This document shows positions 30,779 to 48,881 of a DNA stretch of 64,000 bases, one piece after another. The DNA is from a virus (lineage: Duplodnaviria; Caudoviricetes). The stretch is taken from IMG/VR virus record IMGVR_UViG_3300011008_000999; one strand, given 5' to 3'. The first letter of the stretch is position 1. Each line of letters begins with the position of its first letter. The translations under genes were made by a program, and so were the position numbers. The notes beneath the pieces were generated by a model. It had not been told where the DNA came from. It saw only the letters and a list, made by a program, of their open reading frames with translations, and made no database searches.

Positions 30779-32212
30779 TTAAAATGCGATAATCTGATTG
30801 AGCTGCTCTGTAATTTCATCATTAGTATCAATAGTAATCCACTGCTGGTACCACTGAACCTGCTTAATTACTTTATCAATCTGTCCAAACTGTGCTACAA
30901 TAGGAACATACTTATTGATGTTCTGTTCAACAATCTTATTAATGTCATCATCGTCCTTATCAATACGAGTAAGAACTACTCCGATCTTTTCAAGAATGTT
31001 ATCACCAGGTCTAAAAGTATTATTCTGTCTTGTACCAGATAAAGTCTTAAACTGTTTAATAACAGACTTAACAGCATTAATTGAAGGGTTACATGTGATA
31101 ATGATCTTATCAGCAATCTTATAAAGATTACTAATAGGAAGCTTACCAATATAATCAATACCACTATCAAAGAAGACTACATCGTAATTCTTAATGAGTT
31201 TATCGAAAATATCAGTCCAGAACTCATTATCGTTCGTAATCGTAGGAATATCCTGCGAAGGTGCAAGATAAAAGTCAATATTAGGACTAAAGTGATCAGA
31301 CTTAACCTTACAGTTTTCAAGATAACTAAAGTCTTTACGCTCATTTCTATAAAGCTTGTAGTAATCCTGCATGGTAGGTGTAAGTTTGTTGATAGTAATA
31401 CCAACCTGACCATCAATAATATCAAAGTCTGCTAATGCAATTCTCTCAGTTGGATGAGTCTTAGCGTACCAATAAGCACTAATCAAACAAGTGAAAGTCT
31501 TACCAGTACCACCTTTAGAAGATCCAAATAAGATAACTTTTGCAGGAGCAGCTTTTCTACTTCTACTTCTATCACCTGCATCATAATCATCATACTGAAG
31601 CATATTACCTAAACTTGTCTGCATCTGCTGCTGTGTAAGCTGCTGCATCTGTGACTGAGTCATAGGCTTAGGCTGTGCCTGAGGCTGTACAGGAGGAGCT
31701 TGCTGTACCTGAGGCTGATAAACAGGCTGCTGATACATTTGCTGATCCTGGTATGGATTCTGATAAGGTTGCTGATATGGCTGCTGATACTGCTGAGGCT
31801 GAGGTGCAACTGGTTGCTGCATCTGAGGCATCGGCTGAATCTGCTGCGTTTGTGGTTGCACAGGTTCTGGCTGAACATAAGGTTCAGGTTCTGGCTCCTC
31901 ATTAAACTCAGGTTCTGGTTCAGGTACATAAGTAGAATATACTTTAATTTCCTGAGTAATAGTAAATGTAGGAGCTGGACGATCATCAAATCTGTAGTAG
32001 ATGATATTGACGCCAGCTTCAATATAGGCATCAAGTGCCTGATATATCTCTTCGGTTAAGTCGGCGACATCATACCAAATACCTTCATCAATTTCAAGAC
32101 CGTCATCGTCTGACGCACGAGAAAAGAACTCGTTAGGCGTCCACTGCTCAACCTGAAAACCCTGTGCAAGATCTTCAGGAAGGCGCTGATCGGTACTTAC
32201 TACAATGTACAT
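30779..32212 (-). CDS. ParA/MinD/CpaE(TadZ)-like ATPase with N-terminal domain and Q/P linker
   Basis: Deviant Walker A SKGGTGKT; ALADFD; YDVVFFDS; ADKIIIT. Confidence 0.8.
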   Translation of the reverse strand: MYIVVSTDQRLPEDLAQGFQVEQWTPNEFFSRASDDDGLEIDEGIWYDVADLTEEIYQALDAYIEAGVNIIYYRFDDRPAPTFTITQEIKVYSTYVPEPEPEFNEEPEPEPYVQPEPVQPQTQQIQPMPQMQQPVAPQPQQYQQPYQQPYQNPYQDQQMYQQPVYQPQVQQAPPVQPQAQPKPMTQSQMQQLTQQQMQTSLGNMLQYDDYDAGDRSRSRKAAPAKVILFGSSKGGTGKTFTCLISAYWYAKTHPTERIALADFDIIDGQVGITINKLTPTMQDYYKLYRNERKDFSYLENCKVKSDHFSPNIDFYLAPSQDIPTITNDNEFWTDIFDKLIKNYDVVFFDSGIDYIGKLPISNLYKIADKIIITCNPSINAVKSVIKQFKTLSGTRQNNTFRPGDNILEKIGVVLTRIDKDDDDINKIVEQNINKYVPIVAQFGQIDKVIKQVQWYQQWITIDTNDEITEQLNQIIAF

Positions 32213-41863: not shown

Positions 41864-42040
41864 TTAATCTAGATCTAAATCTATATAGTCGGTACAATCA
41901 TCGTCTTCTTCATCAGGAACCGATCTACCAATAGGTTTAGCAGTAACTGCATCATAGATAAATAATCCAATAATTACTAATGTACCAAAAATAGTTAAGG
42001 TACCAACAAAAGTTGCAAATGATTTTAAGGCTTTAATCAT
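41864..42040 (-). CDS. Small membrane protein (58 aa)
   Basis: MIKALKSFATFVGTLTIFGTLVIIGLFIYD...acidic tail; AAGGAG RBS; absent from the ORF track. Confidence 0.65.
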   Translation of the reverse strand: MIKALKSFATFVGTLTIFGTLVIIGLFIYDAVTAKPIGRSVPDEEDDDCTDYIDLDLD

Positions 42041-42075: not shown

Positions 42076-42555
42076 TTAAAAATTATACATATTTCCGTCT
42101 TTTACTTCATAGGCACACTCTTTTACTATTTCATAATAATCCATATACTGAATGTATGGTTTATATTTATTATATGTATCTTGATCTATTATTACGTCAG
42201 TTTGGTCATTAAATGTAAGAGTCACCGATCTTTCACTAGGATTCTGAATTATTGAATCAATAACTTTATCAGAAAATTGTTCAATATTAATATCCTTAGT
42301 AATAAAATACGGTGGCGTACATTTATTTATCGAATAATACTTAATAATTAGCTCTGGGTAATCATTCTGAAGACTCTGGAGTATCTCAAATAACGATTGT
42401 TTAAGGTATTTAATATCTACTAATATACCCTCATCAACTGTCAATCCTCTAAATACCGCGTTAAAAAAAGTAACTGATCTTTGAAATTCTAACTCTGGAT
42501 ATTTGAATTTTAGAGATACTGGAAAATTTCGTTCTTCGCTAATTATAATATACAT
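42076..42555 (-). CDS. Array member 5: ParA-N-domain-like N-terminus plus shared C-terminal module
   Basis: Ends VTLTFNDQTDVII...MDYYEIVKECAYEV; N-terminus aligns with the 30779..32212 N-terminus. Confidence 0.75.
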   Translation of the reverse strand: MYIIISEERNFPVSLKFKYPELEFQRSVTFFNAVFRGLTVDEGILVDIKYLKQSLFEILQSLQNDYPELIIKYYSINKCTPPYFITKDINIEQFSDKVIDSIIQNPSERSVTLTFNDQTDVIIDQDTYNKYKPYIQYMDYYEIVKECAYEVKDGNMYNF

Positions 42556-42911
42556 TATTCAACTACCTCTAATGCGTATTCTCTAACTACTGTTTCATAG
42601 TCCATATTTTTGATCTGCTCATAACTATTTTCAAAATCATAAATACTTATATGAACTTTAGTATCATTAGAATAAGTCAATACTACATCATCTACGTAAT
42701 ATTCAACATCCTCTAATATAATATCTTCTTCACCATACTTTTCTTCATATAATAGCCAGGTTTTAGCGAACATAGTTTTACAGATATCATTAATAGTTTT
42801 GACATCTTCTTCACAATACTGGTGCTCTCGTTCATTATAAGATCTTATATTATCCCAAGAACCACCTTCGCATAACATTTCTTTCCAAGTATATTCATTT
42901 TTAGGATGCAT
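42555..42911 (-). CDS. Array member 4 (start MHPKN)
   Basis: Ends VVLTYSNDTKVHI...MDYETVVREYALEV; ATG 42911 follows GAGGT. Confidence 0.75.
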   Translation of the reverse strand: MHPKNEYTWKEMLCEGGSWDNIRSYNEREHQYCEEDVKTINDICKTMFAKTWLLYEEKYGEEDIILEDVEYYVDDVVLTYSNDTKVHISIYDFENSYEQIKNMDYETVVREYALEVVE

Positions 42912-43417
42912 TATCAAGTACCTCGATTGCAAATTGCGATATAATAGTTTTGTAGTCCATCTTACCAATTTCAGATTCTATCATAAAGAAATCTACTGCA
43001 TTCATAATCATATGAGTATTATTACTAAAACGTACAGTTACAGTACAAGTATTTTCATCATATTCGTATCCAGTATATTTAATTACAACCTTCTTAGGTT
43101 TTGCTTTTTCCCTCTCAAACTGAAGACGTATATCATAATACTGTAAAGCTCTTTTAAACTCATCAAATGCTAAATCATCTTTATACCAATCTGCATCATA
43201 ACCATATTTATAATAATCGTCAATAAGATTATCTGCAAAATCATAATTACCATAATAGTCATTATACTCAAAATTCAACTTATTTGATACATATTCAAGT
43301 ATCTCTACTAGATGGTTATATTCATCACGATCATAAGTAGGATCAAGATAATTCAAATAGTCTTCAAGTTGTGCACAAAATCTTAAGTTGTTTTTAAATA
43401 TTTTTTTTAGGATGCAT
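42901..43417 (-). CDS. Array member 3; natural start ATGCATCCT is frameshifted in an A8 run
   Basis: Ends VTVRFSNNTHMIM...MDYKTIISQFAIEV; removing one A joins MHPKKIFKNNLRF to ORF 42901..43356. Confidence 0.65.
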
Positions 43418-43882
43418 TTAATATACCTCTATAGCAAATTCTCTAATAATATCATCTTTGCTAAAATCTTCTAAGAATAGTGCATTCTCTTCATAGTCAT
43501 TTCTGGAAATAATGACAATTGTAGAATCTGAAAAACGCATTGAAACTATATCATTCATAATTTTAATATTAGAAATTACTGGATGATTCATTACTATTAC
43601 ATCTCCATCAAAGTCTAAACCGCTCTTTAATATGTCGGTCATTAACACTTGCGATTTACCAGTTCCACAACTAGAAGTAATTGGTGTATATACTTTACCT
43701 ATAGGAATTCCAGTACTTTCTCCTAAGTAATCAGTAATGCTATTAACCGGTATTAGTGTACAATTATGTGGTATAGAGGCAAAATCTAAATCATGAATAT
43801 AAAGATCATTATTACAATAGTCTTTAGATAGCTGTTTCAAAGAAGATTTTTGTATCTTTTTAGTAGTTTTCGCCGCCATCAT
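43418..43882 (-). CDS. Array member 2
   Basis: Ends VSMRFSDSTIVII...DIIREFAIEV. Confidence 0.75.
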   Translation of the reverse strand: MMAAKTTKKIQKSSLKQLSKDYCNNDLYIHDLDFASIPHNCTLIPVNSITDYLGESTGIPIGKVYTPITSSCGTGKSQVLMTDILKSGLDFDGDVIVMNHPVISNIKIMNDIVSMRFSDSTIVIISRNDYEENALFLEDFSKDDIIREFAIEVY

Positions 43883-44243
43883 TATATTTTACCTCAATAG
43901 CAAATTCTCTAATAACTCTTTCTATAGGTATTTTATGCAATTCTTCATGATATTTCATCCAATCATCATGTGTAATATACACAATAGTTTCATTTGTATA
44001 TCTTATAGCGACTGTATCTGTATCGAGGCCGTCTACATAACTAATATAAACTTTATCTTTCCAGTATTCTTTCTGTCGTTTATTATTCATTGATGGGCCA
44101 TATAATTCATGAAGAACTGCATCTAATTCTTCGTCTGACATATCATCAAAAGGATAATTATCTTTCTTCCACTCAATAGCGCTCATAACATCAAGCATAG
44201 AAGATTCACTTTCAAACATACCATTGTCTAATAAAGCGAACAT
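43860..44243 (-). CDS. Array member 1
   Basis: Ends VAIRYTNETIVYI...RVIREFAIEV. Confidence 0.75.
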   Translation of the reverse strand: MFALLDNGMFESESSMLDVMSAIEWKKDNYPFDDMSDEELDAVLHELYGPSMNNKRQKEYWKDKVYISYVDGLDTDTVAIRYTNETIVYITHDDWMKYHEELHKIPIERVIREFAIEVKYNDGGENY

Positions 44244-46097: not shown

Positions 46098-46129
46098 ATT
46101 ATATCAAGAAAGTTTTATAATGTAAATAG
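46098..46129 (-). promoter_or_regulatory. Class-1 promoter
   Basis: ctatttac attataaaactttcttga tataat. Confidence 0.8.
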
Positions 46130-46633: not shown

Positions 46634-47092
46634 TTAAAAATCATCGTATGCATCATAAGATGCTGTCGCAGGTGCGGAATCAGGCTTAGCGGCAGGCTGT
46701 TCAGTAGGCTGAGACTGTGTCTGAGGCTGAGGCTGAGTTGCAGTAGGTGTAGACTCACCGCCAGAAACATTACCATCAGACTTCTTACCAAAGAACTCAA
46801 CGTTATCAATAAGCATCTGGAAGCCATATACCTTGGTTCCATCTTCCTTAGTATAATTGTTGTTCTGGAATGTTCCTTCAATAAGAGCTTTAGAACCTTT
46901 CTTGAAATACTTAGCAATAAAGTCTGCAGTCTTACCGAATGCTACATACTGGAACCAGTCTGTGTCAGGGTCACCTTCCTTGTGGAAACGTCTTGCAACT
47001 GCTCCACTGAATTTAACCATAGTCTGATTGTCTCCGTAGTTCTTAACCTCCGGATCTCCACCAAAAGTAACTGTTTGAGTTGTTCTGTTCAT
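46634..47092 (-). CDS. ssb: Single-stranded DNA-binding protein
   Basis: DTDWF..VAFGKTADFIAKYFKKGS..LIEG; acidic C-terminal tip YDDF. Confidence 0.92.
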   Translation of the reverse strand: MNRTTQTVTFGGDPEVKNYGDNQTMVKFSGAVARRFHKEGDPDTDWFQYVAFGKTADFIAKYFKKGSKALIEGTFQNNNYTKEDGTKVYGFQMLIDNVEFFGKKSDGNVSGGESTPTATQPQPQTQSQPTEQPAAKPDSAPATASYDAYDDF

Positions 47093-47195: not shown

Positions 47196-48881
47196 TTAAA
47201 TCTTGAAGAAATCAACTGCATCTTTAAGATCATCTGCAAGATTCTTCATAGTAGTCATATCTTCTGATACACTATTTACTGCTTGAGACACAGTAACCGT
47301 AGTAGCAGTTACCTCTTCATTTGTAGCAGAAGTCTCTTCTGAAATAGCGGACAGATCAGAAATTGCACCAGAAATAACTGACTTAATTTCATCAAGCTTC
47401 TTAGTAATATCAGATACCTTGTTAATATTATCTACTGAAGAAGTAATTTCGTTATTAAGCGCATCGAACTGTTCCATAGCAATCTGAAGAAGTTCCTGTT
47501 CTTTATCAATAATTGCCTTAACTTCATCTGCCTGAGTTACACAGTTAGCAGAAAGATCAGTAATCTCATTTACAACATCTTTAATGTTCTTAGCAGATGC
47601 ATTACTATCAGCAGCAAGTTTACCAATTTCATCAGCAACTACTGCAAATCCTCTACCAGATTCACCAGCTCTTGCAGCTTCAATCTGTGCATTGAGTGAT
47701 AAGAGATTAGTCTGACCTGCAATATCAGAGATAAGCTTAACCATTTCACTGATCTTTTCAACTGCAGTATTTGTATTGTTAATACTCTGACGAATATTTG
47801 TAACAGCATCAACTGACTTCTTACTACTTTCAGAAATATCAGAAATACACTGCATAGCGTTTGTATTTGCATTAGACATTGTATCGGTACTATCTTTAAG
47901 AACTGAAACTATATCTACTGCATTAGATACGATTTTATCCATATCAGATACATTCTCGCTAATATCCTGTACATTCTCAGCAAGAGTAACTGTACCATCA
48001 GCAAGATTACTCATAGAATCGGAGATCTGTGACATATCACTAGATACCTGTTCTGCATTACAAGTAGTTTCTTCTATCTTATCATCAAGACCACTCATAT
48101 TTGTATTGATCTTGGATAAAATTTCCTGAAGGTTAACTAAAAGAATCTTAATACTATCAATAAGTGTAATAGTCTCAGTTACATGAGATTCAGCATTAAG
48201 TTCAATCTTAGTTTCACCAGTAGAAAGTGTTTTAAGACTATCTGCAACTTCTTTAATAGGATTAGAAACCTTTTTAACTATCATAATAGCGATTACTGTA
48301 AAGATACCAATAAGAATAGCTGCTAAACCAAAAATAATAAGCATAATATGCTGTTCTGCTTTCTGAATCTGAGTAGCAGGTTTACCAGCAAATGCCATAC
48401 CTACAACATTTTTATCTGCATCATATAGAGGCATGTAATATACAAAATACTTAATTCCACCAATTTTTACATCATTAGACTGATAATCCTCTTTAGACTT
48501 AACTGCTTTCCATACAGCCTCAGATGCAGTTGTTCCTTCATTTCTTGTACCATCTTCATTTCTAAGAGATGTCATATAACGTACATCATCTTTGAACAGT
48601 GTAAGATGTACACCGACGTTATTATTAACGACGTCAATATATTCAGTTGGATCATATTCAACGAAACCGTCAGTTAGATCCGCATCGTTTATCAAGTCAT
48701 ATTCATAATAACTCTTAAGACCTTGTGCAGCTAACTTCAGTTCTTCAAAAGTAGTAGTTTCAAGATTTGAGTTCATTATGTTTAGAGAAACTATAGCTAA
48801 CATAATGATTCCACAAGTCAGTGGAACTAATGCAAATAAGATCAGCATTTGTCTCAAGTTAATGCCCTTTTTGTTACTCAT
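47196..48881 (-). CDS. Methyl-accepting chemotaxis protein (Cache sensor, HAMP, signalling domain)
   Basis: Two TMs; [37 protein letters not shown]. Confidence 0.95.

Follow-up and report, generated by a model that had tools for sequence, protein, structure and literature searches.

Five abutting open reading frames (ORFs) on the minus strand of a giant mobile element, lying between an SbcC-like and an SbcD-like gene, encode proteins whose N-terminal parts (hereafter heads) are dissimilar and which all end in one common module of about 50 amino acids (aa), a previously unnamed, autonomous domain. They occupy positions 42076-44243 of the window, by which we mean the whole stretch of 64,000 nucleotides (nt) that was analysed, taken from the IMG/VR record IMGVR_UViG_3300011008_000999, and are transcribed in the order A-B-C-D-F, where the letters denote head types defined by comparison with related elements. 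Two of the heads are copied from other proteins of the element itself, and we tentatively read the module as a docking domain that presents the heads as adaptors or decoys.

The module has the form V-x-L-x-[YF]-S-[DN]-x-T-x-V-x-I ... [IV]-[IV]-[RK]-[ED]-[FY]-A-x-E-V. An initial annotation had placed five abutting ORFs with unlike N-termini and a shared C-terminal module at these minus-strand coordinates, and this description holds: in a leave-one-out search of the 2,572 six-frame ORFs of the 332-kb genome, a profile built from four copies recovered the fifth at E values between 1e-8 and 6e-13, with no match outside the family at E<=10. Modelled with AlphaFold2 from an alignment of 53 sequences, a member that stands alone as a gene product reaches a predicted local distance difference test score (pLDDT) of 94.4 and a predicted template modelling score (pTM) of 0.77, and adopts the order strand-strand-strand-helix-helix-strand. 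In the AlphaFold2 model of the full-length type A protein, the module is predicted with a pLDDT of 77-87 and the head with low confidence (pLDDT of 64 over the full length). When 1.84 billion cluster representatives were searched exhaustively with a profile, 51 clusters matched at E<=1e-3, marking the module as rare, and among these clusters it occurs as stand-alone proteins of 55-61 aa, as two-module proteins and in fusions. The leave-one-out recovery, the predicted fold of the stand-alone member and the occurrence in stand-alone, tandem and fused forms together define the module as an autonomous domain.

The initial annotation could not assign the module to a named family, and our searches bear this out. 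Neither the five window proteins, nor the stand-alone homologues, nor a 59-member set of the family found a family match in Pfam, PHROG, NCBIfam or PADLOC beyond scattered sub-threshold hits, and sequence searches of the PDB with two module profiles gave nothing below E 0.03. At E<=0.001, Foldseek returned no match for either the full-length type A model or the high-confidence stand-alone model, and feature searches of the ESM Atlas yielded no usable match. A tblastn search with one stand-alone member found no copy in 50,697 phage or 72,556 plasmid records of cultured replicons. Three candidate identities were considered and set aside. A split intein was dismissed by eye, as the alignment shows neither a conserved Cys or Ser where the module begins nor a TxxH block. 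DUF6061 (PF19537) was matched below threshold by 2 of the 59 members, and the one true match to this family in the genome is a different ORF of unrelated sequence. KTSC (PF13619) was matched by 1 of the 59 at E 0.0095, below the cut-off, and the KTSC profile itself finds nothing in the genome at E<=10. The true DUF6061 match (25.8 bits, above the cut-off) lies outside the window at genome positions 243827-243997 and contains one internal TAA; an ORF beginning MERLFEF stops at this codon and a second ORF continues in the same frame, so that these may be two adjacent genes.

Comparison with related elements shows how the array varies. We examined eight loci, namely the window and those labelled L001, L003, L004, L012, L029, L030 and L031, on related contigs of 24 kb to 401 kb, and in all eight the SbcC-like gene is followed by a 9-nt gap (from its stop codon to the start of array gene 1), the array and then the SbcD-like gene. 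The arrays are neither identical nor fixed in length, a comparison that the initial annotation had called for: they hold two genes in L004 and L031, four in L001, L012 and L030, five in the window and six in L003. Clustering of the heads gives six types, and each array is a subset of the single order A-B-C-D-E-F, with A, B, C, D and F in the window, all six in L003, A, B, E and F in L001, and A and F in L004; no complete array that we saw lacks type A or type F. Every array member is matched by the module profile at 1e-15 to 1e-26. The proteins diverge fast, with identities between relatives of 54-82% for type A (orthologues in L001, L003, L004 and L031), 47-68% for B, 37% for C, 46% for D and 25-33% for F, where the same comparisons give 95-96% for SbcC, 90-93% for SbcD and 97-98% for the next gene. 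In type E proteins (L003:9522-9989 and L001:8706-9257) the module is internal and is followed by 49-58 residues. At the level of sequence, the comparison thus shows old colinear paralogues with gain and loss of whole cassettes between the fixed ends A and F and with rapid divergence, and a recent shuffling of heads onto a constant tail does not seem to have taken place. The notion of a family recently expanded by recombination has therefore to be given up in favour of old paralogues that vary in presence and absence, and so does that of a constant module, since paralogous copies within the window share 25-39% identity and, in comparisons of orthologues, the module changes about as fast as the head. 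Genes caught up in conflict, between host and element or between elements, are expected to show just this combination of gain, loss and rapid divergence.

The heads were initially described as unrelated to one another, which is correct within the window, but they are not all orphans, since two find matches elsewhere among the element's proteins. A profile of the type F head matches aa 5-98 of the ParA/MinD-like ATPase over its full length at E 5.6e-24; by BLAST against the same protein, the L001 copy is 39% identical (E 7e-16) and the window copy 28% (E 7e-6), and the type F protein and the ATPase both begin MYI[IV][IV]S. Judging from these matches, the N-terminal domain of the ParA/MinD-like ATPase was copied into the type F head. 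About 45 residues are common to type B heads and NrdD, around the motif [VI]Y[IT]HDLD...HNC..IPV (Pfam NRDD 0.0036; NCBIfam NrdD 8e-4). Against the element's own NrdD, the type B head is 40% identical over 45 aa at E 7e-5 in a search of all genome ORFs, and a profile of the head gives E 8.4e-5, so that type B carries a segment of the resident NrdD. These two similarities lend indirect support to the earlier suggestion that the array encodes decoys. Several N-termini also carry [KR]-x-T-G-Y-[IL], like the glycyl-radical motif of NrdD, a match that is statistically weak. The C-terminal extension of type E shares YCE[AS]DV.AT.D[LM].N with type D heads (window 42555-42911); on shuffling, the observed score was reached in 0 of 200 cases for two of the three extensions and in 1 of 200 for the third, and type E looks as though the boundary to a following gene had been lost and a D-like head had become attached.

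The genes of the array are tightly packed. At four junctions GAGGT lies inside the terminal E-V codons, 7-9 nt ahead of the next start codon, as expected of the Shine-Dalgarno role that had been proposed for it. The reported identity in the starts of two consecutive members, types C and D, is likewise real: both open with ATGCATCCTAAAAA, encoded within a 15-nt exact repeat at 42898-42912 and 43404-43418. For the third gene the annotated ORF is present, and its start has been corrected to the ATG at 43417, which is separated from the ORF by a run of eight A (43401-43408), one more than expected, leaving the first 20 codons out of frame. The near-identical relative L029 (651-680) has seven A at this place and an intact orthologue of 171 aa (P0008). 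The run of eight could be an assembly error, a switch prone to slippage or a genuine inactivation of the gene. All array proteins are acidic, with isoelectric points of 4.2-5.1 and a net charge of the module between -2 and -9 over 48 residues.

The module is found well beyond the array. Two further proteins of the same genome, encoded far from it, are recovered by the five-copy profile at E 6.5e-13 and 2.7e-8 without having been part of its training set. One is a protein of 259 aa with a DUF3945/Toprim_Crpt-like head, encoded beside a Tpt1/KptA gene; the other has 337 aa and carries the module in mid-protein (L011:1108-2121, corresponding to genome 197781-198821). The part of the 337-aa protein that follows the module shows a D...D-A-K pattern, by eye a nuclease motif of the PD-(D/E)xK or NERD type, to which Pfam gives no support. 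Among the fusion partners in the clusters are DUF3945/Toprim_Crpt-like, NUMOD4/HNH and pentapeptide-repeat parts; the DUF3945/Toprim_Crpt-like partner belongs to Pfam families that occur in proteins of conjugative elements. Stand-alone module genes lie directly after SSB in another element, after a RecD2-like helicase in an element bearing YqaJ, Toprim and an integrase, and, as a tandem pair (L015:2456-2632 and 2696-2872), right after a gene of the NAD-dependent-ligase type on a 3-kb metagenomic contig, which indicates that duplication of the module gene recurs outside the array. The flanking sequences fetched for these copies have no called SbcCD gene. The stand-alone members are mostly acidic, with P0056 and P0068 neutral or basic. 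Among the metagenomic relatives, P0038 combines an N-terminus of the NUMOD4/HNH_3 homing-endonuclease kind with the same C-terminal 55 residues, module included, as the type B-like P0037; an array gene has apparently been invaded by a homing endonuclease gene.

The acidity of the array proteins, the autonomous fold, the diversity of the fusions and the copied protein pieces lead us to consider that the module may be a protein-docking domain and the heads adaptors or decoys, a reading that we regard as quite possible without going so far as to call it probable. The acidity of the module argues against direct DNA binding by the module itself. It would dock on a conserved part of the machinery for DNA replication or recombination, and the heads, at least two of them copied from the element's own proteins, would supply different specificities. 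The array is an accessory island of fast-evolving genes that has been inserted between the Rad50-like gene and the Mre11-like gene, and its setting would be one of host-element or element-element conflict; it shows indirect traits of an anti-defence island, the proteins being small, acidic and hypervariable and the genes variable in copy number and close to SSB. Several points weigh against this. The similar pace at which module and heads diverge gives no sign of a module held constant by one invariant partner. The frameshift of type C in the element itself implies that not every cassette is needed. Structural comparison of the module models by VIA gave weak and non-specific fold neighbours, with a top Z of 5.2 for a beta-propeller blade. 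The neighbourhood in DNA metabolism amounts to guilt by association from about six contexts, and head profiles of types A, C, D and E detected no source or other paralogue in the genome. A complex prediction for two copies of the module (score 0.01) gave no answer, speaks neither for nor against self-association and was not used as evidence. One could also speculate on a more elaborate version, a combinatorial system in which self-derived pieces are tethered by the module to one hub, possibly the Rad50/Mre11-like nuclease or SSB, where they would protect the authentic proteins against attack by the host or link the processing of DNA ends to partition and the supply of nucleotides; this we consider unlikely.

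The partner suggested at the outset was the Rad50/Mre11-like (SbcCD) complex, on which the module would dock specifically while the heads bring targets or regulators; alternatively, the array might provide specificity subunits for a defence-type SMC-like ATPase and nuclease. The position of the array between the two genes in 8 of 8 loci, 9 nt from the first of them, speaks for such a link, as does the failure to find a terminator-like site within the array, and the defence variant would accord with the PADLOC matches of the ATPase (mad3, LmuB) and the phosphoesterase (PDC-S10). Yet the same genome encodes two module proteins far from SbcCD, the stand-alone homologues adjoin SSB, ligase or RecD2-like helicase with no SbcCD called nearby, and the interval also holds unrelated inserts (the 58-aa protein, the SIMPL-like protein and, in L003, a DUF6508 gene), behaving as a general insertion hot spot. 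The wider distribution of the module thus fits poorly with SbcCD as its common partner, and we think a specific docking on it rather improbable. By analogy with known effector families, which have a conserved C-terminal domain for recognition in common, the module could instead mark the array proteins for export into a recipient by a type IV secretion-like or conjugation-like apparatus. Variable heads on a shared, mostly C-terminal domain would suit this role, the proteins are small, acidic and fast-evolving, and the element has T2SSE-type and VirB4-like ATPases and other transfer-like genes, with an SSB gene near the array. We nevertheless give export a low probability, for type E and the 337-aa protein carry the module internally, stand-alone copies sit in the replication/recombination module of an integrase-bearing element in whose fetched flanks no transfer genes were called, and no similarity to any known secretion-signal domain was found.

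It is similarly hard to favour acidic DNA mimicry or direct inhibition of host nucleases or restriction systems, with the module as the active part and the heads secondary. This would make sense of a module charge of -2 to -9 in all array members and of acidity in most stand-alone forms, and of hypervariable genes near those for DNA-end processing and SSB; a monomer of about 50 residues is small for such a role, however, the stand-alone P0056 and P0068 are neutral or basic, and scans of Pfam, PHROG and PADLOC gave no likeness to ArdA, Ocr, Gam or another known inhibitor. Finally, the array might be largely neutral debris of a recombination hot spot, made of decaying duplicates and captured fragments without current function. 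One member is frameshifted in the window, the heads include fragments of other genes, members are freely lost, down to two in L004 and L031, and P0038 joins a homing-endonuclease N-terminus to a type B tail. Against this stand the open frames, the start-stop coupling and the Shine-Dalgarno spacing, all kept while the proteins diverged to 25-50% identity, together with the strong module profile scores in every member and the presence of A and F in every complete array seen, and we hold out little hope for this explanation either.

Table 1. Positions in the window of the array genes, their neighbours and related features
Feature	Position	Strand	Remarks
Array gene 1, type A (P0005), 127 aa	43860..44243	-	Head aa 1-72; module DNA 43875-44030; in every related array
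Array gene 2, type B (P0004), 154 aa	43418..43882	-	Module DNA 43421-43564; head aa 10-49 NrdD-like around HDLD motif
Array gene 3, type C	42901..43417	-	ATG 43417 (MHPKK...) out of frame; remaining ORF 42901-43356, 151 aa from TTG; module DNA 42904-43059
Array gene 4, type D (P0002), 118 aa from ATG	42555..42911	-	Module DNA 42558-42704; L003 orthologue 46% identical
Array gene 5, type F (P0001), 159 aa	42076..42555	-	Head aa 1-~100, homologue of ParA-like N-terminal domain; module DNA 42088-42240; in every related array, always last
Rad50/SbcC-like SMC-type ATPase, 548 aa	44253..45899	-	Pfam SMC_N 2.2e-17 (aa 3-547), AAA_23 1.2e-14, AAA_29; PHROG SbcC-like 8e-21
Mre11/SbcD-like metallophosphoesterase, 344 aa	40003..41037	-	Pfam Metallophos 3.4e-15, Metallophos_2 3.6e-16
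58-aa protein with hydrophobic stretch and acidic tail	41864..42040	-	Between array and SbcD-like gene; in all relatives, 42-67% identical
SIMPL/DUF541-like protein, 263 aa	41057..41848	-	Pfam SIMPL 2.2e-5, exactly at cut-off; 60-70% identical in relatives
Promoter-like site TTTACA-17-TATAAT with TG	46098..46126	-	Best-scoring; upstream of the 58-aa gene preceding the SbcC-like gene; consensus match only
SSB gene	46634..47092	-	Pfam SSB 6.4e-17; two genes upstream of SbcC-like gene
ParA/MinD-like ATPase, 477 aa	30779..32212	-	Pfam AAA_31 and CbiA at aa 225-435
ParA-like N-terminal domain, paralogue of type F head	about 31919-32212 (aa 1-98)	-	Profile and BLAST

The two flanking genes (Table 1) are divergent members of their families, as assigned from profile matches. 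The SbcC/Rad50-type ATPase has a CVLC motif in mid-sequence, and its matches to the Rad50 N-terminal models of NCBIfam remain below the curated cut-offs, with no NCBIfam equivalog cut-off reached. The SbcD/Mre11-type protein matches Mre11_Sulfo at 3.1e-13 and TIGR00619 (sbcd) with 45.3 bits, where the cut-off is 77.65, its NCBIfam Mre11 and sbcd matches all lying below their cut-offs. The best PADLOC matches of the ATPase are to defence ATPases, mad3 (5e-24) and LmuB (2.5e-17, full length), and the phosphoesterase matches the candidate system PDC-S10 at 8.6e-13, so the pair may have a role in defence or exclusion. The hydrophobic stretch of the 58-aa protein was judged by eye to be a membrane segment, and the promoter-like site is a possible start of the operon. 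In L003, an additional DUF6508 gene (L003:10544-10921; Pfam 3e-12) lies between the array and a hydrophobic protein of 59 aa, showing that the interval from SbcC to SbcD takes up unrelated inserts.

The window is part of a record of 331,944 bp bearing direct terminal repeats. IMG/VR classes this record as a complete virus, a label that our searches did not confirm, and we therefore speak of a giant (332-kb, circular) mobile element with conjugation-like genes. Pfam found no Terminase_6N/6C and no HK97-type capsid in the genome, other capsid or portal families not having been searched; it did find transfer-type ATPases, VirB4-like (AAA_10) and T2SSE, which are accompanied by other transfer-like genes. 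Besides the ParA/MinD-like ATPase and SSB, the element encodes a chemoreceptor: the gene for this methyl-accepting chemotaxis protein lies at window positions 47196-48881, is 91-96% conserved in two relatives and is missing at the same position in L004. The NrdD of the element is split over two ORFs outside the window, about 1.1-1.4 kb apart (genome 325186-326604 and 327668-328780; L028 and L027), that cover positions 2-248 and 271-562 of Pfam NRDD, which suggests an intervening intron, intein or homing-endonuclease insert. A megablast search with the locus found no match among cultured phages and plasmids.

We have found no description of an array with self-derived heads in the sources searched, and the domain is both unnamed and rare. 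If the module is a docking domain, it would give access to a level of regulation or conflict in the giant extrachromosomal elements that uncultured bacteria carry, with interchangeable heads on one hub. As a new family with a confidently predicted fold it is in any case small enough for nuclear magnetic resonance or crystallography, and its profile marks a hypervariable island and can be used for typing such elements. The copying of parts of the element's own proteins, the ParA-like N-terminal domain and the NrdD segment, into small accessory genes, of which the array is a clear case, could represent a general route to decoys or dominant regulators.

Among known folds, the best recurring resemblances, both weak, are to RecX and DUF2442. 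Of the N-terminal part of Gram-positive RecX (PDB 3d5l; Pfam RecX_N/RecX_HTH1), three strands and two helices superpose on the module, with a Z of 4.5 in VIA, below the advised level of trust, at a root-mean-square deviation of 2.1 A over 47 residues, and with template modelling (TM) scores of 0.61-0.63 for four RecX clusters in the ESM Atlas. A recombination context is common to both, but there is no sequence similarity and no Pfam match, and the three helical repeats that follow in RecX are absent from the module. DUF2442 (PF10387; the N-terminal domain of NE0471, PDB 2auw) is, like the module, a small strand meander followed by helices; the ESM Atlas gives a TM score of 0.58 over 50 residues and Foldseek matches 2auw_A with a probability of 0.66, an E value of 0.46 and a TM score of 0.47, figures in the chance range for a model of 58 residues, and Pfam shows no sequence match. 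We know of no established function for DUF2442 itself. KTSC resembles the module in size, in being stand-alone or fused, in being common in phages and mobile elements and, by eye, in its strand-strand-strand-helix order.

At 548 and 344 aa, the products of the flanking genes match the gp46/gp47-type Rad50/Mre11 pairs of T4 and other large phages in size and in family assignment. The SbcD-like protein finds its nearest cultured match in the T4-like Caulobacter phage Cr30 (a "recombination endonuclease", 29% identical), and the pair stays below 30% identity to every cultured phage and plasmid. Islands of several fast-evolving genes for small accessory proteins are well known from phages and conjugative elements, as illustrated by the polyvalent and anti-defence proteins described by Iyer et al. 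2017 (PMC5512222). A non-exhaustive check of that article found no description of the module, and DUF3945 is not mentioned in it. The polyvalent proteins are likewise mosaic, fast-evolving and assembled from small recombined domains; they form one giant polypeptide, whereas in the present element the domains are spread over separate small genes.

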